Source: an uncultured Actinomycetota bacterium (GTDB lineage: Bacteria > Actinomycetota > Geothermincolia > Geothermincolales > Geothermincolaceae). From it: a DNA stretch of 64,000 nt. The stretch covers positions 34,623-98,622 of the forward strand of contig CAZETE010000001.1 in the NCBI GenBank assembly GCA_964515075.1. Direction: 5' to 3'. Below the pieces are notes generated by a model. The model was not told where the DNA came from. It saw only the letters and a list, made by a program, of their open reading frames with translations, and did not search any database. The position numbers were made by a program, and so were the translations under genes. Shown here in pieces: positions 43,187-51,501 of the stretch; position 1 is the first letter of the stretch; every line of letters starts with the position of its first letter.

Positions 43187-44220
43187 GGGCGGGGGTCGTC
43201 GGCGCGGGGTCCTGGGGCACCGCCTTCGCGGCCCTCCTGGCCAGGCAGGGCCTGGAGACGGTGCTGTGGGCCCGGGAACCGGAGGTGGCTGAGGGGATCA
43301 ACGAGGGGCGCAGGAACCCCTTCTTCCTCACCGACTGCGTCCTCCCCGAGGGGCTCTGGTGTTCCGGCGACCTGGCGGAGGTGGCGCGCGGCCGGGACCT
43401 GCTGGTGATGGCGGTGCCCTCCCAGTGGGCGGGGGAGACCGCCGCAAGCCTCAAGGGGCTGGTGGGGCCGGAAACCGCCGTGCTCAACCTGGCCAAGGGA
43501 TTCGACCCGGCGACGCGCGAACGCCTCTCCGTGGTCATCGGCCGCAACGCCGGCGTGGAGGAGCCCCGTTTGGCCGTGCTCTCCGGGCCCAACCACGCCG
43601 AGGAGGTGATCCGGGGGGTGCCCAGCGCCGCGGTGGTGGCCTCCTCGGACCGGGAACTGGCCCGCCGGCTGCAGCGGGCCGTCAACACCCCCTACTTCCG
43701 CATCTATACCAACCGCGACGTGGCGGGAGTGGAGGTGGGGGCCGCCTACAAGAACGTGATCGCCATCGCCGCCGGGGTGGTGGACGGCATGGGCCTGGGG
43801 GACAACACCAAGGCCACCCTGGTCACGCGGGGCTTGAGCGAGGTCATGCGCTTCGGGGCGGCCCTGGGGGCGCGGGAGTGCACCTTCTCCGGGCTCTCGG
43901 GGATCGGCGACATCATGGTCACCTGCTACAGCCGCCACTCCCGGAACCGCGGGCTGGGCGAAAAGATCGGAGCCGGCATGACCCTGGAAGAGGCCACTCG
44001 GGACATGAAGATGGTGGTGGAGGGGGTATACGCCACCGGCCTGGTCTTCGAGATAGCCCGGGAGAGGGGCGTCGAGGTCCCCATCGCCGGCGCCGTCCAC
44101 GGCCTGCTCCAGGGCGGGACCACCCCCGCCCGGGCCCTCGTACGGCTCATGACCCGGCGGCTCAAGGAGGAGTCCTCGGAGGAGAGCATCATCTACGGGG
44201 CGGAGCCGGAGGAACGCTAG
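43183..44220 (+). CDS. gpsA: NAD(P)H-dependent glycerol-3-phosphate dehydrogenase
   Basis: TTG overlapping the plsY stop. VVGAGSWGTA Rossmann motif, and the KN and GLS motifs of GpsA. Confidence 0.9.
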   Translation: MRAGVVGAGSWGTAFAALLARQGLETVLWAREPEVAEGINEGRRNPFFLTDCVLPEGLWCSGDLAEVARGRDLLVMAVPSQWAGETAASLKGLVGPETAVLNLAKGFDPATRERLSVVIGRNAGVEEPRLAVLSGPNHAEEVIRGVPSAAVVASSDRELARRLQRAVNTPYFRIYTNRDVAGVEVGAAYKNVIAIAAGVVDGMGLGDNTKATLVTRGLSEVMRFGAALGARECTFSGLSGIGDIMVTCYSRHSRNRGLGEKIGAGMTLEEATRDMKMVVEGVYATGLVFEIARERGVEVPIAGAVHGLLQGGTTPARALVRLMTRRLKEESSEESIIYGAEPEER

Positions 44221-44474
44221 GGGAGACCCGCCGGCGCCGCCAGAGGGGGCCTCGCCCGGATAAAGGCGAAAGCAGCCTTCCCTGGCGGGACTGCTGCTTT
44301 CCGGGTGGGGCGTTGGATCTCGTGGATCCCAACGGTTATCCTCTCAACGTCAGGGAAATGATAACCCGCCACGCAACGAGGGCATAGTGGCTGAAAGTAT
44401 GATTTTTTCCGTTTTGGTAGGATTGCTTAACCCTTACTCAACATAAGATATATTATCGGCGGTACCGGGGGGGT

Positions 44475-45038
44475 CTATGAGGGGGCGCCGCCGCGTCCGT
44501 CCTCAAGCAGTGACGCCAGTTCCTCCAGCCAGGCCAGCTCCCCCCGGTAGACCTCGATCTGGCGGCGGCAGATGCTCGCTGCCAGCTTTTCGGCCAGCCC
44601 TCCGACCAGGCCGGACAGGGACTCCAGGCGCGCCGCCCAGCCGGCCATCCTCCGGGAGACGCTCTCCGCGCGCCTCTCCAGGGCCAACAGGGTCTCACCG
44701 ACGTCGAGGGACTCTGGAAACTCCAGGGCCAGGCAGAACTCGTTGCGGAGGGGCTCGGGCGAAGAAAGCTGTTCGTACAGGAGGTCCGAGAGGCGCTCCC
44801 TGCCCGTTGCCGTGAGACGGTAGACGCTCCGTTGCGGCCCCTTGCCCGGCCTCTCGGTGACGGAAGCCAGGCAGCCCTGCCCCTCTAAGCGGGCGCAGGC
44901 CTTATAGGCCGCGACGTCGCTGACCCTGATCCAGTCGCGCAGTCCGCGCGCGTCGACCTGGCGGGCTATATCGTATCCGTGGCGCGGCTTCTCCGCTATC
45001 AGCCCCAGGACCAGGAGATCTATGGCTTGCACGGCCAC
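44475..45038 (-). CDS. PadR family transcriptional regulator
   Basis: LLVLGLIAEKPRHGYDIARQV winged-HTH of PadR. GTG start; an in-frame GTG 6 nt downstream is an alternative. Confidence 0.8.
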   Translation of the reverse strand: MAVQAIDLLVLGLIAEKPRHGYDIARQVDARGLRDWIRVSDVAAYKACARLEGQGCLASVTERPGKGPQRSVYRLTATGRERLSDLLYEQLSSPEPLRNEFCLALEFPESLDVGETLLALERRAESVSRRMAGWAARLESLSGLVGGLAEKLAASICRRQIEVYRGELAWLEELASLLEDGRGGAPS

Positions 45039-45043
45039 CTCTT

Positions 45044-45062
45044 ATAATTAACGGTTAATTAT
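45044..45062. promoter_or_regulatory. perfect 19-bp AT-rich palindrome ATAATTAAC-G-GTTAATTAT immediately upstream of padR; candidate PadR operator/promoter
   Basis: 9-1-9 dyad with zero mismatches inside a 60-bp AT-rich island containing TATAAT-like hexamers. Confidence 0.4.
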
Positions 45063-45078
45063 ATAACTATTATATAGC

Positions 45079-45687
45079 TTAACCCGGGAGTCCGCCGTCG
45101 GCGGCGTTGATGAGGCGCGAGACCACCTCCGAGGCGAGCATCTTCAATTCGAAGACGTTGAGGTAGTGAGGGGCGGAGGCATCGAAGAGGATGCTGGCCG
45201 AGGCCGGGAACTCCTCGTCGGAGTCCCAGAAGATGAAGAGCAGGTTTATGCGGGGAAAGGCCTGAAAGACCATCCCGGCGTCGCCCTGGCTGACCCGCGT
45301 GCCGCCCAAGCGCCCTCCCGCGTCCACCAGGGCCTGCAGGCCGCCGTCGAAGCGGTTCTTGAGGCGGTCCTCCACGGTGTCGGCGAAGCTAGAGGAGTAG
45401 AAGAGGCCGTCGGGGAGCTCGCGGTAAGGTATCCACTGGTGGGAGGGGGGCACCCCATCGGCCCGGTAGAGGTAGAGCAGGGCCAGGAGCTTCAGGGTGA
45501 AGGTGGAGAGGAAGTCGGGCATGGAAAAGGCGAGCCCGGGATGGGTCAGGCCTATGCTCCAGCGGAGGAAGGGTATCTCGAAAGCCCCTGAAGAGAAGGA
45601 GACCCCCGCCCTTTCGGCCACGTCCTCCGGATCGCGGCTGCGCAGGTAGCGGCTGGGCTCCTCGAAGGGGTCGCCCTTCTCCGTCAA
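45079..45687 (-). CDS. hypothetical protein, possibly DUF3786 family; last gene of the nrd operon
   Basis: The ORF overlaps the nrdG stop. The candidate TTG start at 45687 is in frame; the upstream ATG in the track overlaps nrdG by 85 nt and is judged unlikely. No catalytic motif recognised. Confidence 0.4.
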   Translation of the reverse strand: MTEKGDPFEEPSRYLRSRDPEDVAERAGVSFSSGAFEIPFLRWSIGLTHPGLAFSMPDFLSTFTLKLLALLYLYRADGVPPSHQWIPYRELPDGLFYSSSFADTVEDRLKNRFDGGLQALVDAGGRLGGTRVSQGDAGMVFQAFPRINLLFIFWDSDEEFPASASILFDASAPHYLNVFELKMLASEVVSRLINAADGGLPG

Positions 45688-46427
45688 GACGCCGCCCTCT
45701 GTCCCTGGTCGTTGGCCAGCCCGCCCCTGACCGTGGTGGGCAGCAGGACCGAGAGCTTCTCCGCCCACTGGGCCAGCAGGCGTTCGGGGTAGGGTTTCAC
45801 ACCCTCGTAAGAGGGGTCGAGGGTGCCCTGCGGGCGGAACTGCTGCAGGACCAGGGCGCGAGCGCCCGCCAGCCGTTGGGCGATCTGGCGCAGGTCAGAC
45901 AACTCCACCAGTCCGGGAACCACCGTGCAGCGGAATTCGTGCTCAACCCCGCTTGAGCGGATGATGTCTATGGAGCGGAGGATGTCCTCGACCGAGACGG
46001 GCGAGCGGGTGGCCAGGGGGTATTTGCCCAGGGAGGTCTTGACGTCCATGGCCACGTAGTCGACCCTCCCCTCCCCCACCAGCTGCCGCAGCATATCGGG
46101 ACGCGAGCCGTTGGTGTCCAGCTTGACCTCGAAGCCCAGGGAGCGCGCCGCGCCGGCCAGTGCCGGCAGGCCGGCGTGGAGGGTGGGCTCTCCCCCGGTC
46201 AGGCAGACGCCGTCGATCCAGCCGCGCTTCTCCTCGAGCCAGGCGGCCACGTCCTCCCAGGAGATACCGGCCCGCGCCCCTCCCTCCCCCGCCTCCCCCA
46301 GCAGGGAGGCGTTGTGGCAGAAGGGGCAGCGGAAGTTGCAGCCCCCCAGGAAGAGCACCGTGCAGATCCTGCCGGGCCAATCCAGCATGCTGGTGGGAAG
46401 GATCCCCCGCAAAGCGATCTCCTGCAT
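45684..46427 (-). CDS. nrdG: anaerobic ribonucleoside-triphosphate reductase activating protein (radical SAM)
   Basis: CNFRCPFCHN radical-SAM cluster motif; 247 aa. Confidence 0.85.
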   Translation of the reverse strand: MQEIALRGILPTSMLDWPGRICTVLFLGGCNFRCPFCHNASLLGEAGEGGARAGISWEDVAAWLEEKRGWIDGVCLTGGEPTLHAGLPALAGAARSLGFEVKLDTNGSRPDMLRQLVGEGRVDYVAMDVKTSLGKYPLATRSPVSVEDILRSIDIIRSSGVEHEFRCTVVPGLVELSDLRQIAQRLAGARALVLQQFRPQGTLDPSYEGVKPYPERLLAQWAEKLSVLLPTTVRGGLANDQGQRAAS

Positions 46428-46439
46428 GCCCCGCGCCCC

Positions 46440-46685
46440 TCAGTTGGCGGCCGAGTCGATCTCCCGAGGGTTGGGCACCTCGCAGCGCCAGGCCCGCACC
46501 TCGTGGCCGTCGTCGTCGGTCATCAGGACCGAGGGGGTGCACTGGATGCCGTAGAAGGCCGCCTCCGCCAGCCCTTCCACCTGGTCGAGGTCGAAGATCT
46601 GCACCTCGCCCGCGAACCCCCTCACCGCCTCCTTGGCGGCGGGGCACTTCGGGCAGTCTTGCTTGACGAAGAGTTTAAGATACAA
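46440..46685 (-). CDS. glutaredoxin-like / NrdH-like small redoxin (thioredoxin fold, CPKC active site)
   Basis: 81 aa. KQDCPKCP active-site CxxC and TPSVL cis-Pro region. Located between nrdD and nrdG with overlapping ends. Confidence 0.6.
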   Translation of the reverse strand: MYLKLFVKQDCPKCPAAKEAVRGFAGEVQIFDLDQVEGLAEAAFYGIQCTPSVLMTDDDGHEVRAWRCEVPNPREIDSAAN

Positions 46686-48843
46686 GCTTCAGCCCTCCCT
46701 TCCCGGCCTCCCGGCCGTCAGCCTCGTTTGACGCGTTCAAGTTGGAAAGGGCGGTACGGCCCCGGTCCCTCAGCTCCCCCATCTTGCCCCGGTTCCAGGT
46801 GGAGATCTTGGAGAAGTAGCCCACGATGCGGGTGATCCCGTAGACGTCGCCCGAGTCGCACAGCGGGCAGCGCTCGTGCAGCCCGCGTGAAGTGCGGCGG
46901 CAGTCGTTGCACACGGTGAACTCGGGCGAGAAGGCGATCTGGGAGGAACGGGTGTTGCGGAAGGTCTTCTCCACGAAGCTGCGGATGGAGCGGGGGTCCG
47001 GCTCGTGCTCGCCCAGCCAGATGTGGCAGATGGCCCCGGCGTCGATGAGCGGGTGGAAGAGGCTCTGCTTCTGGATGCGCTCGATGTAGTCGATGTCTTC
47101 TTCCACGTTCAGGTGGACGCTGTTGGTGTAGTAGAACTCCCCGCTCTCGAGGTTGCCCTTGATCACCCCGGCGGTCTGCTCCGGGAAGTACTTGGCGTCC
47201 AGCTTGGCCAGCCGGTAGCCGCTGGATTCGGCGGGAGACTCCTCCAGCACCAGCTGGATGCCGTACTGCTCGGAGAGGCGCTTGCAGGTCAGGTTCATGT
47301 GCGCGATGACCTTGAGCCCGAACTTCAAAGCGTCCTCCGATTCGTGCAGCTGCTTCCCGTAGTGGTGCTGCACCAGCTCGTTGAGGCCGAGGATGCCGGC
47401 CAGGTAGGTCAGGCGGTCCAGGCGCAGGTAGTCGTCGCCGTCCTTGGCGGCGCAGAGCATGGAGAGCGGTCCGGTGACCCCCAGGTCCAGCAGGCCGGCG
47501 ATGAAGGCCTTCTTCTGCAGGTGGGCCTTGGCCACCAGCTGCAGGGCCTTGTCCAGCTCGTTGAAGAGGAGCTCGTCGGAGCCGTTGGCCTTGAAGGCGA
47601 TGCGCGGCAGGTTGATGGTGATGTTCTGCAGAGCCGAGAAGCGCATCTTCTCCGGGGTCCTGGTCTCCTGGAGGTCCTCGTCCTTGAGCTTCAGCTTGAG
47701 CCGGCAGCACTGGGAGACGGTGATCTCGTCCCCCCGGTCGAAGACGAAGTAGGTGATGCCCTGATGCGCCGCCACCCTGCAGGCCAGGTCGAGGAACTCC
47801 TCGTGTCCCTCCGTGGAGAAGAAGTCCTCGCTGATGTGGAGCAGCGGCTTGGGGAAGACGAAGGTCTTGCCCATGGCGTCCCCCTCCAGGTAGACCTCGA
47901 AGAGCGCGGTGATGAAGGCCTGCATCTCCTGCTCGTAGTCCTTGTACTTCTTGCCGGTGTACCTGCCGCCCGGACCGATGGCCGGGGTCTCGCGGAAGTG
48001 CCGGGGGACGTTCCAGTACAGGTTGAAGTCGGTGAAGACCACCTGCGAGCCCCGCGCCCCGGCCAGCTGGTTGAACTCGTAGATGAGCATCTGGGCCAGC
48101 TGCTTGATGCGCGGGTACTCCAGGCCCGTGAGGAAGGGGGCGAAGAACATGTTCACCGCCTCCCAGCCGATGGCCCCGGCGTAATAGGACTGGAGGGTGG
48201 AGGCCATCTTGACCATGTGCCCGATGAGCACCTCGGGGTGCTTGGCCGGGCGGGAGGTGGAGGTGATGTTGGGCAGGGACAGCCCGTACTTCTTTATGTA
48301 CTCCAGGCTGTGCCCGCCGCAGTAGGGCCGGACGATGAAGCCCAGGTCGTGCAGGTGGATGTCCCCCACCATGTGGGCCTGGGCCACGTCCTCGGAGAAG
48401 ACCTTGCGCATGGCGTAGTCCTTGAGGATGGCCTCGGCCAGGGTCAAGTTGATGGATTCGGGGTTGTGGGTGGTGTTGCTGTTCTCCTTGTTGGCGTTGA
48501 GGATGATCTGCTCCACGTCGTACATGGGCAGCCCCAGCTGCGAGTGCTTCTTGTGCAGGGTGTTGTGGCCCCGCTTGAGCAGCTCCAGGTCCACCAGCTC
48601 GCGGATGATGGAGGTGGTTACGGTGTTCATCTTCGAGGAGACGATGGTCTGCTCCACCGCGCCGGCGATCTCCTCCGCCAGCGGCCGGGCCATCCCCGTC
48701 TCCAGCACCAGCGAGGTGACGATCTTCTCCGGGTCCCAGAGGTTTATCTCCTCCTTGGAATAAGTGCTGACGAGGAGGGCGATGTCCGTGGTGTCGCCCG
48801 CCGCGCCCGTCCTCTTCACTACCTTGATCTGACTGGCCCCCAT
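46675..48843 (-). CDS. nrdD: anaerobic ribonucleoside-triphosphate reductase (class III, glycyl-radical)
   Basis: ATG at 48843 after GAGGAGGTAGAC. N-terminal ATP-cone. C-terminal Zn-ribbon CNDC...CPLC. Glycyl-radical motif RIVGY near the C-terminus. Confidence 0.9.
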   Translation of the reverse strand: MGASQIKVVKRTGAAGDTTDIALLVSTYSKEEINLWDPEKIVTSLVLETGMARPLAEEIAGAVEQTIVSSKMNTVTTSIIRELVDLELLKRGHNTLHKKHSQLGLPMYDVEQIILNANKENSNTTHNPESINLTLAEAILKDYAMRKVFSEDVAQAHMVGDIHLHDLGFIVRPYCGGHSLEYIKKYGLSLPNITSTSRPAKHPEVLIGHMVKMASTLQSYYAGAIGWEAVNMFFAPFLTGLEYPRIKQLAQMLIYEFNQLAGARGSQVVFTDFNLYWNVPRHFRETPAIGPGGRYTGKKYKDYEQEMQAFITALFEVYLEGDAMGKTFVFPKPLLHISEDFFSTEGHEEFLDLACRVAAHQGITYFVFDRGDEITVSQCCRLKLKLKDEDLQETRTPEKMRFSALQNITINLPRIAFKANGSDELLFNELDKALQLVAKAHLQKKAFIAGLLDLGVTGPLSMLCAAKDGDDYLRLDRLTYLAGILGLNELVQHHYGKQLHESEDALKFGLKVIAHMNLTCKRLSEQYGIQLVLEESPAESSGYRLAKLDAKYFPEQTAGVIKGNLESGEFYYTNSVHLNVEEDIDYIERIQKQSLFHPLIDAGAICHIWLGEHEPDPRSIRSFVEKTFRNTRSSQIAFSPEFTVCNDCRRTSRGLHERCPLCDSGDVYGITRIVGYFSKISTWNRGKMGELRDRGRTALSNLNASNEADGREAGKGGLKLVS

Positions 48844-48862
48844 GTCTACCTCCTCGATATCC

Positions 48863-49324
48863 TCACTTATCGGTTTTCTTGGTGAGCTCTCCCAACTCCT
48901 CCTGGAACTGGGAGACGTCCTTGAAGTCCTTATAGACCGACGCAAAGCGCAGATAGGCTACTTCGTCGATCTCCTTGAGCTTCTTGAGGACTATCATACC
49001 TATGGCCACCGACTTAATCTCCAGCTCGCCCCGCGCTCGCAGCTCCGCCTCTATCCCTTCCATGGCCTCCTCCACCTTCTGCCGACTGGCCGGGCGTTTC
49101 TCGAAGGCCTTGACCAGGCCGGCCACGACCTTCTCGCGCTTGTAGGGCACCCGCTCCCCGCTGCGCTTGATGACCATCGCCGGTATCTGCTCATATCTTT
49201 CGAAGGTGGTGTAGCGCGATCTGCAGTCGAGGCATTCCCGCCTCCGCCTGATCACGTTGCCCCCCTCGGAGGAGCGGGAATCAACGACCCTGCTGTCCCG
49301 GTGGCCGCAGAAAGGACACTTCAT
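48863..49324 (-). CDS. nrdR: transcriptional repressor NrdR
   Basis: MKCPFCGH...CLDC zinc ribbon plus ATP-cone; 153 aa. Confidence 0.9.
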   Translation of the reverse strand: MKCPFCGHRDSRVVDSRSSEGGNVIRRRRECLDCRSRYTTFERYEQIPAMVIKRSGERVPYKREKVVAGLVKAFEKRPASRQKVEEAMEGIEAELRARGELEIKSVAIGMIVLKKLKEIDEVAYLRFASVYKDFKDVSQFQEELGELTKKTDK

Positions 49325-49375
49325 GCCGTCTTCTCCCTTCGACCTTCACCCCTACATCTTGTGGCTTACGCATTA

Positions 49376-49403
49376 ATATTAGCACAACATATGGGCATGT
49401 CAA
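49376..49403 (-). promoter_or_regulatory. sigma70-type promoter of the nrdR-nrdD-grx-nrdG operon (TTGACA-16-TAATAT) with two NrdR-box-like AT-rich dyads
   Basis: On the minus strand: TTGACA (49398-49403), a 16-nt spacer CCCATATGTTGTGC, then TAATAT (49376-49381). A second CACAAGATGTAGG element lies at 49351-49364. The two elements are ~31 bp apart centre to centre. Confidence 0.5.
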
Positions 49404-49724
49404 GGGTATTTCGGCTGATTTTCCGGGGTAATTTCCAGAAAAAGCCAAAGTCTTGATTTATACTGAAGGCTGTTCTTGAACCATTGGTATAAAGTTAATG
49501 GATGAATTGAGCATTAACATTCAGAACTGGAGTACAGGATGAGGATGCCGATTCGGGCGACTAACGCTGTCTGCCTGCGTAAACCCTTAATCGAACTGCG
49601 GAACGGGCAGTCGGCAAGCGCCTGCCCGTCATGGCGCGGATGCACGGGCGTATAGCCTGAAGAAATCGTTGAGGGATTTGCGGGCTCCCCTCACGTCGAT
49701 TACGGACTCTATACCTCGACTAAA

Positions 49725-49774
49725 GGCATTTTGCCGGGCCCGGCAAGGGGAAGGGCCCGCCGGGGGGCGGGCCC
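49725..49774 (-). terminator. GC-rich hairpins downstream of the DUF1858 gene (candidate intrinsic terminator)
   Basis: Minus strand: GGGCCCGCCCCCCGGCGGGCCC, then TTCCCCTT, then GCCGGGCCCGGC, then AAAATGCCTTT. There is no clean U-tract. Confidence 0.35.
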
Positions 49775-49801
49775 TGAAGGCATTGCGCAGTCGGGACGCT
49801 C

Positions 49802-49999
49802 CTACTTCTCCGCCTCGGCCTGGTTGAGCGCCTTGACCAGTCCGTCAACATCGATGCCGTGGGCCAGGGCCCCCTGCTCGATGTTCTCGTAACGGGCCAC
49901 GGAGCATCCGACGCAGTGCAGTCCGTGCTCCAGGAAGACCCTGACGGTCTGCGGGTTGTTCTGGACCACTTCCTGGATGGTCATGTCCTTGGTGATCAT
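49802..49999 (-). CDS. DUF1858 domain protein (hybrid-cluster-protein-associated redox disulfide protein-like)
   Basis: 65 aa. CVGC motif and the conserved DUF1858 layout (IQEVVQNNPQTVRVFLEHGLHCVGC). Confidence 0.65.
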   Translation of the reverse strand: MITKDMTIQEVVQNNPQTVRVFLEHGLHCVGCSVARYENIEQGALAHGIDVDGLVKALNQAEAEK

Positions 50000-50071
50000 A
50001 CGGCTTCCTCCTCTCCTGCGGGTCGCCCCGGCGATTTTACCCTCCTAGGATAATCTCCGCCGCGCCCTGCG

Positions 50072-50446
50072 TCAATGATCGGGAAGGCCTTCGCCGGCGG
50101 CGGGCTCGATGCCGTACTTCACGAGCAGCGCCCGGTAATCCTTCTGGTAGAAGACCTTGCACTTGATCTCGGGGTAGAGCTCCTTGAGCCGCCGGACCTT
50201 CTTGTTCTTCTTGGTCACCAGCTTCTGGTTGAGGGTGGTGAGTTCGATGTACTGGTCGTAATCGGGAAGGTAGAAGTCGGGGGTGAACTTCTGCACCGGC
50301 CTGCCGGACTTGTCCCAGGCGATATCGAAGGAGCGGGGCTCGTACAGCCAGGCGATCTGATAGAAATCGAGGATGCGGGCGAACTCCTGTTCGCTGCGGT
50401 GGGCGAATCTGACCTCGTCCCACTTGCGGTAAACGGGCTCCTCCAT
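50072..50446 (-). CDS. hypothetical protein (possible PD-(D/E)xK-like fold)
   Basis: ATG at 50446 after GGGGAAGG. 124 aa; PDFYLPDYDQYIELT segment. No confident family. Confidence 0.45.
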   Translation of the reverse strand: MEEPVYRKWDEVRFAHRSEQEFARILDFYQIAWLYEPRSFDIAWDKSGRPVQKFTPDFYLPDYDQYIELTTLNQKLVTKKNKKVRRLKELYPEIKCKVFYQKDYRALLVKYGIEPAAGEGLPDH

Positions 50447-50457
50447 GCCTTCCCCGA

Positions 50458-51501
50458 TCAGCCGAAATCCTTCTTCTTGCGGGACATCTCCTCCAGCTTG
50501 GCCAGCTGGTCGACGGTGCCGATGGCGATGAGCGAATCCCCCGCCTCGAGCCTTAAGCCCTTGGGCGGCTTGGTGTTGAAGCCGCCGCCCTTTTTCTTCA
50601 CCGCCAGGATCAGGGCGCCCGAGACGGAGTAGATCTTGGCCTCCTCGATGGTCGGGCCGTCCAGGAAGGATTGGGCATAGATCTCCACGTCGTCCAAGCG
50701 CCATTCCAGGCTCTCCACGTTGAACTCGATGTAGTCACCCCGCGTCACCAGGTCTAGGTAGTCCCAGACCAGCGGCTTGAGCAGCATGGCCGCCATGCGG
50801 TGGCCGCCGATGGAGTGCGGGGAGATGACCCGGTCGGAACCGGCACGGCGCAGCTTGGGCTCGGACTCCTCGTTGTTGCAGCGCGAGACGATGAAGAGGT
50901 GGGGGCAGAGCTCGCGGGCGGTGAGGGTGACGTAGAGGTTCTCGGCGTCGGAGGAGAGCGCCGTCACCAGCCCCTTGGCCCGCTCGATGCCCGCCGCCCG
51001 CAGGGTCTCGTCGTCGGTGGCGTCGCTCTTGATCACGGTGAAGCCCATCTCCAGGGCCGCATCCGCCACCTCCAGGTCCTTTTCGATGACCACGAAACTG
51101 ACGCCGGCCCCGGAGAGGTCCATGGCGATATACTGGCCCACCCTGCCGTATCCGCAGAGTATGTAGTGTCCGAGCAGGTTGTCAATCTCTTTCCTCATCT
51201 TCCTCCTCCCCATGAGTCCGGACATGCGCCCCTCCACCATGAACTCGACCGTGCTGGCCAGGGCATAGGCCACGGTGCCCACGCCCGCGAGGACCAGGAG
51301 GATGGTGAAGATCCTCCCGTCGGTATTGAGGGAGAAGGTCTCGCCGTAGCCGATGGTGGTCAGGGTGATGATGGTCATGTACAGCGCGTTCAGGAAGTTC
51401 TGCTCCTCGATGAGCATGTAGCCTAGCGTGCCGACGGTGATGATCGCCGCCAACAGGAGCAGGGCGTTCCTCAGCTTTCGCAAGGATTGCTGCAACGGCA
51501 C
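50458..51501 (-). CDS. potassium channel protein (2-TM pore with TIGYG filter plus RCK/TrkA-N and TrkA-C domains)
   Basis: GTG start. Selectivity filter TTIGYGE; NAD-binding-like GYGRVG. Confidence 0.8.
   Translation of the reverse strand: MPLQQSLRKLRNALLLLAAIITVGTLGYMLIEEQNFLNALYMTIITLTTIGYGETFSLNTDGRIFTILLVLAGVGTVAYALASTVEFMVEGRMSGLMGRRKMRKEIDNLLGHYILCGYGRVGQYIAMDLSGAGVSFVVIEKDLEVADAALEMGFTVIKSDATDDETLRAAGIERAKGLVTALSSDAENLYVTLTARELCPHLFIVSRCNNEESEPKLRRAGSDRVISPHSIGGHRMAAMLLKPLVWDYLDLVTRGDYIEFNVESLEWRLDDVEIYAQSFLDGPTIEEAKIYSVSGALILAVKKKGGGFNTKPPKGLRLEAGDSLIAIGTVDQLAKLEEMSRKKKDFG

Follow-up and report, generated by a model that had tools for sequence, protein, structure and literature searches.

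Which electron donor serves the class III ribonucleotide reductase (RNR) of an uncultured Actinomycetota bacterium that encodes a small redoxin between the reductase and its activase? The question arises from a 64,000-nucleotide stretch of contig CAZETE010000001.1 (hereafter the window), in which positions 45079-49403 hold a compact nrd locus. An earlier note on this DNA had read the locus as nrdR-nrdD-grx-nrdG-hyp and had suggested that the glycyl-radical enzyme NrdD is reduced by a thiol redoxin rather than, or in addition to, formate. Both the signature of the NrdD active site and the presence of nrd genes beside the redoxin gene at 80 of 80 loci favour that suggestion. From active-site signature and gene context together, the locus is likely to be an NrdR-controlled class III RNR operon of the redoxin-dependent type, carrying its own redoxin as the reductant of NrdD. 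Its five genes, with protein lengths in amino acids (aa), are:

48863-49324, minus strand: nrdR, 153 aa, repressor with zinc ribbon and ATP-cone (PF22811, PF03477; TIGR00244 198 bits against a cutoff of 125)
46675-48843, minus strand: nrdD, class III RNR catalytic subunit, 722 aa (PF13597 494 bits, TIGR02487 440 bits)
46440-46685, minus strand: redoxin gene, 81 aa, TTG start, CPKC at residues 11-14, thioredoxin fold
45684-46427, minus strand: nrdG, radical S-adenosylmethionine (radical-SAM) activase of the NrdG2 type, 247 aa (TIGR02495 193 bits against a cutoff of 131; PF04055)
45079-45687, minus strand: DUF3786 gene, 202 aa, TTG start (PF12654 161 bits against a cutoff of 27)

The open reading frame (ORF) listing and the family scans agree on five co-directional minus-strand genes, as the earlier note had proposed, with matches above curated cutoffs for nrdR, nrdD, nrdG and the DUF3786 gene. 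The true start of nrdD was placed at the ATG at 48843, which is preceded by a GAGGAGG ribosome-binding site and gives the 722-aa product. Independent gene calls on public contigs yielded the same lengths for the redoxin, NrdG and the DUF3786 protein. The gene ends, previously described as overlapping throughout, do so at two of the four junctions: nrdD runs 11 nucleotides (nt) into the redoxin gene, and nrdG shares 4 nt (TTGA) with the DUF3786 gene, whose TTG start lies over the nrdG stop codon. Gaps of 19 nt and 12 nt were found at the nrdR/nrdD and redoxin/nrdG junctions, respectively. The order nrdR-nrdD-redoxin-nrdG-DUF3786-padR, the last gene encoding a PadR-family regulator, is kept in 18 of 19 related genome loci (DUF3786 identity 50-77%), and the 19th contig is too short to tell. 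Such recurrence of gene order is far beyond chance.

The NrdD active site was examined by pairwise profile alignment to all solved NrdDs, namely those of Thermotoga maritima (Tm), phage T4, S. thermophilus and P. copri. The bottom-face (beta-A) cysteine, Cys125 in Tm, corresponds to Cys175 here. The finger loop S-Q-C379-C380-R aligns with S328-C-C-R331 of Tm and with MGCR of the formate-type enzymes of T4, S. thermophilus and P. copri, placing Cys380, the thiyl-radical cysteine, opposite T4 Cys290. The loop lacks methionine, with Gln378 at the methionine position and Cys379 at the glycine position. Glu534 (LEESPAE) aligns with Tm Glu495 (IEQVPAE), at a position occupied by tyrosine in T4 and S. 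thermophilus (YSTPAE/YSTPSE) and by leucine in P. copri. Gly675 sits in the C-terminal glycyl-radical motif RIVGY, behind a four-cysteine zinc ribbon (Cys645/648/659/662). The glycyl-radical motif and zinc ribbon, together with the thiyl and bottom-face cysteines, are those of a class III RNR catalytic subunit.

Three NrdD subtypes were distinguished by Wei et al.: NrdD2 has a third cysteine and the glutamate, NrdD3 has the third cysteine without the glutamate, and NrdD1 has neither (PMC4493059). An analysis of 1,375 class III sequences identified clades with the glutamate and without the finger-loop methionine, traits of thioredoxin-only use; in the SCCR enzyme of Neisseria bacilliformis, one finger-loop cysteine and the beta-A cysteine form a disulfide that is then reduced by thioredoxin (PMC9669993). 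The window NrdD carries the NrdD2 or thioredoxin-type features, a third cysteine adjacent to the thiyl cysteine (xCCR) and the equivalent of Tm Glu495. It has no single-cysteine MGCR loop with the thiosulfuranyl-radical methionine of the formate-type NrdD1, and the presence of Glu534 separates it from the methanogen-type NrdD3. The earlier note had proposed a comparison with formate- and thioredoxin-dependent subgroups; with Cys175, a QCCR loop free of methionine and Glu534, the predicted assignment is to the thioredoxin type and not the formate type, and the enzyme fits the thioredoxin-only signature. The motifs YC[GS], S[QE]CCR and LE[EQ]xPAE occur in every redoxin-linked NrdD with readable positions, down to 48% identity, and the apparent exceptions proved to be intein junctions.

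Inteins are found exactly at the catalytic cysteines in many close NrdD homologs (L005/P0082, P0133, L013). A 222-aa mini-intein (SYLGD...YSHN|C) lies right before the bottom-face Cys175, and an intein of ~430 aa (CLHPE...THN|C) right before the finger-loop Cys-Cys pair. The 1512-aa nrdD ORF of L013 (4034-8572) contains two inteins, and the window nrdD has none.

The genomic context of the redoxin was surveyed by a metagenome scan that returned 80 loci at 40-99% identity. At all 80, nrdD and/or nrdG adjoins the redoxin gene, mostly flanking it on both sides. The gene directly downstream is nrdG in 72 of the 80 loci and the one directly upstream is nrdD in 64, with nrdD 400-550 nt away in approximately eight more; at ~73 loci in all, nrdD is upstream at a distance of up to ~550 nt. 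Three remote redoxins (47-55% identity) are likewise encoded between nrdD and nrdG, followed there by dcd/dut. The family is therefore almost exclusive to the nrdD/nrdG context, and the co-occurrence with nrdDG that had been put forward as a check is very strong. It is also a small family, with 19 clusters returned by a word-indexed search.

The redoxin had been called glutaredoxin-like. Its length of 81 aa and a CPKC-bearing thioredoxin fold held up, although the small MJ0307-type thioredoxins are closer to it than either glutaredoxin or NrdH is. It scored just below the Pfam cutoffs for Glutaredoxin (PF00462; 21.6 bits, cutoff 22.9) and Thioredoxin_3 (21.9 bits, cutoff 24.8). The MJ0307-type model TIGR00411 gave 27 bits against a cutoff of 92.75, so the protein is not a member of that family. 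By phmmer, the closest solved sequences were the MJ0307 thioredoxin (PDB 1fo5; E = 1e-4) and, marginally, NrdH (1h75; E = 0.02). NrdH-redoxins are characterized by a CVQC active site and a WSGFRP motif; the window protein has CPKC and lacks WSGFRP. Its AlphaFold 2 (AF2) model, with a predicted local distance difference test (pLDDT) score of 95.5, adopts a minimal thioredoxin fold (beta-alpha-beta-alpha-beta-beta-alpha), in which the N-terminal CxxC on helix 1 and a cis-Pro loop are predicted as expected for the thioredoxin-fold superfamily. Foldseek matched this model with probability 1.0 to many thioredoxins at template modelling (TM) scores of 0.65-0.79, including short thioredoxins, a B. 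subtilis RNR-complex chain, BC3987 and NrdH. Cys11, Cys14, cis-Pro51 and a GLAEAAFY motif are invariant in the family alignment. A further cysteine pair consists of Cys49, just ahead of the cis-Pro loop, and Cys68, in WRCEVP. As these two co-occur only in the closer redoxin clade, with Ser/Thr and Gly in their places in more distant members, the alignment suggests a second disulfide, structural or regulatory in role.

NrdG carries the cluster motif CNFRCPFC (CX3CX2C) in addition to its TIGR02495 and PF04055 matches and is on these features an NrdG2-type radical-SAM activase. Its predicted role is to generate the glycyl radical at NrdD Gly675. Modelled on the N. bacilliformis enzyme, each turnover would then leave Cys175 and Cys379 oxidized as a disulfide, Glu534 serving as the base. 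The 81-aa CPKC redoxin would re-reduce this disulfide and be recharged in turn by a reductase presumably encoded elsewhere.

Transcription of the unit is predicted to start ahead of nrdR, with the following elements:

49376-49403, minus strand: sigma-70-type promoter, TTGACA, 16-nt spacer, TAATAT, with TG upstream of the -10 element (promoter scan)
49382-49397, minus strand: putative NrdR box 1, tgcCCATATgTTGTGc, overlapping the promoter spacer (read from the sequence)
49349-49364, minus strand: putative NrdR box 2, ccaCAAgATgTAGggg, 33 bp downstream of box 1 and just downstream of the -10 element

The promoter scan returned 5 promoter-like sites, against 1.1 expected. TTGACA is invariant across 14 aligned related loci, in which the promoter and both NrdR-box-like palindromes align without gaps. 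Among these relatives, box 1 has the gap-free consensus CAAyATwTwGTG, and the core ACAAnATnT of box 2 is invariant. Box 1 is read as a match to the published NrdR-box palindrome. The boxes are 33 bp apart; the published NrdR-box spacing is 31-32 bp. Two tandem putative boxes at the promoter of an operon that encodes a zinc-ribbon and ATP-cone protein are what an NrdR regulon would present. Bound to both boxes over the promoter, NrdR would repress every gene of the unit, nrdR among them, in response to the (d)ATP that it senses.

The closest biochemical precedents are the NrdD2 enzymes of N. bacilliformis and T. maritima (Wei et al. 2014). They share with the window enzyme the bottom-face cysteine, a methionine-free double-cysteine loop (SCCR in Neisseria, QCCR here), the active-site glutamate (Glu495 in Tm, Glu534 here), a C-terminus with glycyl radical and zinc ribbon, and an NrdG activase. 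Sequence similarity to the Tm enzyme is distant (phmmer E = 3e-21). The housekeeping thioredoxin system was shown to support the Neisseria enzyme, whereas here a dedicated 81-aa redoxin lies inside the operon. The window locus also differs from those of Neisseria and Thermotoga in having nrdR first and DUF3786 and padR after nrdG. In Methanosarcina barkeri, reportedly studied by Wei and co-workers in 2015, an NrdD3 is said to function with an NrdH-like redoxin and a ferredoxin disulfide reductase. The resemblance to the window lies in the presence of a small thioredoxin-like protein in the operon of a class III RNR. Table 1 of PMC9176816 places a small thioredoxin-like electron carrier within the M. 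barkeri class III RNR operon. Unlike the window enzyme, the M. barkeri NrdD3 has no active-site glutamate (PMC4493059, PMC9669993), and the window operon contains no gene for a ferredoxin disulfide reductase.

Class Ib nrdHIEF operons likewise encode a dedicated CxxC redoxin of ~80 aa together with an RNR, and NrdH (1h75) is a detectable structural neighbour of the window protein. Those RNRs are however aerobic, di-metal/tyrosyl enzymes, both of their redoxin motifs (CVQC and WSGFRP) are absent here, and the sequence similarity is marginal, as noted above. NrdDG of E. coli and phage T4 (NrdD1) share the NrdD fold family, glycyl-radical motif, zinc ribbon and NrdG activase, but are formate-dependent, with an MGCR loop, Tyr or Leu at the position of Glu534, no third cysteine and no operon redoxin. 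The MJ0307-type archaeal thioredoxins (TIGR00411) resemble the redoxin in size (~80-85 aa), CPxC motif and minimal thioredoxin fold, and include its best sequence match of solved structure; the window redoxin differs in its own GLAEAAFY motif and its exclusive nrd context.

Thioredoxin-dependent class III RNR is thus already known, as is a dedicated redoxin in an RNR operon (M. barkeri NrdD3/NrdH, class Ib nrdHIEF). In the literature searched, we found no description of a distinct family of bacterial redoxins restricted to the nrdD-nrdG operons of enzymes of the Cys-Cys/Glu type, or of a lineage-specific recruitment of DUF3786 and padR to them. Few redoxin-dependent class III RNRs have been studied, and the path by which electrons reach them physiologically has been little mapped. 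A compact redoxin family that occurs only with nrdD/nrdG and with methionine-free Cys-Cys/Glu NrdDs provides a natural test of the rule that the active-site signature predicts the reductant. The redoxin is also a likely physiological partner for in vitro work on NrdDs of uncultured anaerobic Actinomycetota.

The last gene of the five, which would be co-transcribed and here translationally coupled to nrdG, had been described as DUF3786-like. It encodes a true family member, with a match covering profile positions 1-175 of the 176 in PF12654. The family motifs YRELPDGLFY and ILFDA..YL are conserved. Neither a conserved cysteine in the family alignment nor a cofactor motif was found, which is why DUF3786 is most likely a non-catalytic or small-molecule-binding accessory. 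Its AF2 model (pLDDT 95.5) gave nothing below E = 0.2 in a fold search of the PDB. Resemblances to SRPBCC/START and IclR ligand-binding domains were weak (TM ~0.2), and no functional inference was drawn from them. A profile search of 1.84 billion representatives placed the family at ~3,600 clusters (50% identity, E <= 1e-3). Nearly all of the best matches are single-domain proteins of ~200-240 aa. With one exception (P0200), the best 150 matches contained no informative domain fusion. A link to a putative Fe-S domain, reportedly recorded in Pfam for DUF3786, did not appear among these 150. The searched literature yielded only an unrelated mention of DUF3786.

The exception, P0200 (763 aa), is the top-scoring relative and combines a LacI helix-turn-helix, a periplasmic-binding domain and two copies of DUF3786. 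It may represent a real fused regulator, which would hint at ligand binding, or an artefact of gene calling.

The distribution of DUF3786 was followed by a genome scan with the family alignment, which returned 80 loci. The 19 closest (50-77% identity) are all from Actinomycetota metagenome-assembled genomes, including Candidatus Geothermincola and Candidatus Solincola. With 22 metagenome loci that join the nrd-linked set, ~40 linked loci were found overall. In a neighbour-joining tree, most nrd-linked DUF3786 proteins form one clade. The remaining linked copies (L109 and L113) fall in a sister group, alongside copies without an nrd link, and belong to the arrangement nrdR-nrdD-redoxin-dut-DUF3786-queC (39% DUF3786 identity). 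The other 61 genome loci (29-46% identity) are from Anaerolineae, Thermoleophilia and other Actinomycetota. The association of DUF3786 with nrdDG, put forward earlier as a test across genomes, thus holds in Geothermincolia-like Actinomycetota and in one sister arrangement but not among these 61 more distant, unlinked homologs. DUF3786 is a real conserved gene that was recruited to the nrd operon in one lineage.

Within the linked clade, a NUDIX hydrolase gene lies between nrdG and DUF3786 in ~15 related loci, among them:

NUDIX-insertion loci: L013 (9552-9962), L009, L011, L018, L097, L100, L102, L103, L105, L110, L114, L115, L133

In other lineages (L081, L084, L109), a dcd/dUTPase gene follows nrdG or the redoxin gene. 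Genes of the deoxynucleoside triphosphate (dNTP) pool (dut, dcd, NUDIX) have repeatedly joined these nrd operons; the window operon has neither NUDIX nor dcd/dUTPase.

Neighbour clustering around the distant DUF3786 genes was noisy, with spurious ORFs in high-GC genomes, and was filtered; no universal partner emerged at the distant loci after filtering. Two other arrangements recur outside the nrd context (L087/L088, 5001-6526; L029, L033, L061, L068). In Anaerolineae, a CBS protein, an acyl-CoA dehydrogenase and DUF3786 are followed by a peroxiredoxin-glutaredoxin fusion. In some Actinomycetes, whose copies fall in the sister group that also holds L109 and L113, DUF3786 overlaps a gene for gamma-glutamyltransferase (GGT), with a divergently oriented amidohydrolase gene. 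Aldo-keto reductases adjoin DUF3786 in one other lineage of unknown taxonomy, and the neighbours in Thermoleophilia are assorted, with no common pattern. A loose thiol-redox theme runs through these contexts: DUF3786 adjoins thioredoxin-fold genes in two independent lineages and, in another, GGT. Neither this nor the dNTP-pool theme is strong enough to assign a function to DUF3786.

Several observations weigh against the proposed reading of the locus. The reductant is one that we infer, and a glance at the N-termini of the ORFs in the window, made without a domain scan, revealed no obvious thioredoxin reductase or ferredoxin:thioredoxin reductase. The redoxin lies under the curated cutoffs of every named redoxin family. 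Seven loci (L122, L139, L144, L147, L151, L152, L167) read nrdR-redoxin-nrdG with no nrdD within 5 kb, so that the redoxin follows nrdG no less closely than nrdD. As to DUF3786, nrd genes are lacking within 10 kb at 61 of the 80 genome loci, only the nearest relatives share the 4-nt overlap with nrdG, and the function is unconstrained by a conserved cysteine, cofactor motif or fold match. The main rival explanation places the redoxin in activation instead of turnover. It would keep the cysteines of the C-terminal zinc/glycyl-radical domain of NrdD, or those of NrdG, reduced, and turnover electrons would come from another donor. The seven loci without nrdD speak for this role, as do the 72 of 80 in which the redoxin gene is directly upstream of nrdG, and older E. 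coli data are in its favour. Set against it are three loci (L109, L112, L113) that keep the redoxin with nrdD where nrdG was not found, and the linked NrdDs themselves, all readable members of which have the Cys-Cys pair and glutamate without the methionine needed for the formate route. We regard the activation-only alternative as unlikely, and the two roles could coexist. Very improbable, in our view, is a formate-dependent or dual-donor NrdD with a general-purpose thioredoxin merely present in the operon. Some sources do label close homologs 'ribonucleoside-triphosphate reductase (formate)', a product of automatic naming, and most double-cysteine NrdDs elsewhere retain the methionine and might use either donor (PMC9669993). 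The finger loop nevertheless lacks methionine, reading QCCR or ECCR in every relative examined, Glu534 is present, and the redoxin family is found only in nrd context at its 80 loci. The same glance at ORF N-termini, again without a domain scan, gave no obvious formate enzyme or second RNR in the window.

Redoxin-dependent turnover remains our preferred reading of the core operon, and the place of DUF3786 in it was weighed separately. The gene could be a lineage-specific passenger downstream of nrdG, kept by operon inertia and perhaps belonging functionally with padR, to which we assign somewhat less than an even chance. The 61 unlinked genome loci and the heterogeneous contexts elsewhere (acyl-CoA dehydrogenase with the peroxiredoxin-glutaredoxin fusion, GGT with amidohydrolase, aldo-keto reductases) favour a passenger. 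So does the presence of dcd/dut or NUDIX in place of DUF3786 in other lineages with the nrdD-redoxin-nrdG core, and the pairing of DUF3786 with padR is conserved equally to that with nrdG. A passenger is harder to reconcile with a linkage that holds over ~40 loci while DUF3786 has diverged to 50% identity, survives insertion of the NUDIX gene, and recurs in the second arrangement nrdD-redoxin-dut-DUF3786-queC at 39% identity; thioredoxin-fold genes moreover lie beside DUF3786 again in an unrelated lineage. That DUF3786 acts in the redoxin or dNTP chemistry of the operon is a tentative proposal, which we hold to be possible but short of probable. More doubtful is the specific version in which deep-branching Actinomycetota employ it as an unrecognised accessory of redoxin-dependent class III RNR, where it would couple the redoxin to an electron source or low-molecular-weight thiol, or serve as a nucleotide-binding dNTP-pool factor. 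If true, it would give a fold without solved counterpart, and a family of 3,600 clusters, a first functional anchor. If DUF3786 is irrelevant to RNR, the operon is a well-annotated and unsurprising one. The linkage in either event offers a testable context for a sizeable uncharacterised family.

Two features follow the DUF3786 gene:

44475-45038, minus strand: padR-family regulator gene, 185-187 aa (PF03551), 40 nt downstream of DUF3786
45043-45063, no strand assigned: perfect 21-bp palindrome TATAATTAAC-G-GTTAATTATA, in the AT-rich 40-nt DUF3786/padR spacer (repeat search)

No terminator was predicted between DUF3786 and padR, and padR is the next gene in 18 of the 19 genome loci. On both grounds padR is probably part of the conserved cluster, and possibly a sixth gene of the operon. 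The palindrome probably serves PadR as an operator, padR as a promoter, or both.

Upstream of nrdR, the DUF1858 gene that the earlier note had placed on the same strand is real:

49802-49999, minus strand: DUF1858 gene, 65 aa, hybrid-cluster-protein-associated redox-disulfide domain with a CVGC motif (TIGR03980 98 bits)

A GC-rich hairpin, GGGCCCGCCCCCCGGCGGGCCC, lies directly after this gene at 49760-49795. Among relatives, only the nearest (L001, L003, L004) have this gene directly ahead of nrdR; in most others it is non-syntenic. Given the hairpin and the inconsistent synteny, DUF1858 was rejected as an operon member and is treated as a separate unit. A search of 44000-50500 gave no Rfam match to a riboswitch or other RNA element. 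Further upstream of DUF1858, the minus-strand ORF at 50072-50704 has no Pfam or NCBIfam match. It overlaps in part a TrkA-type channel gene at 50458-51501, and its true start is for that reason probably internal.

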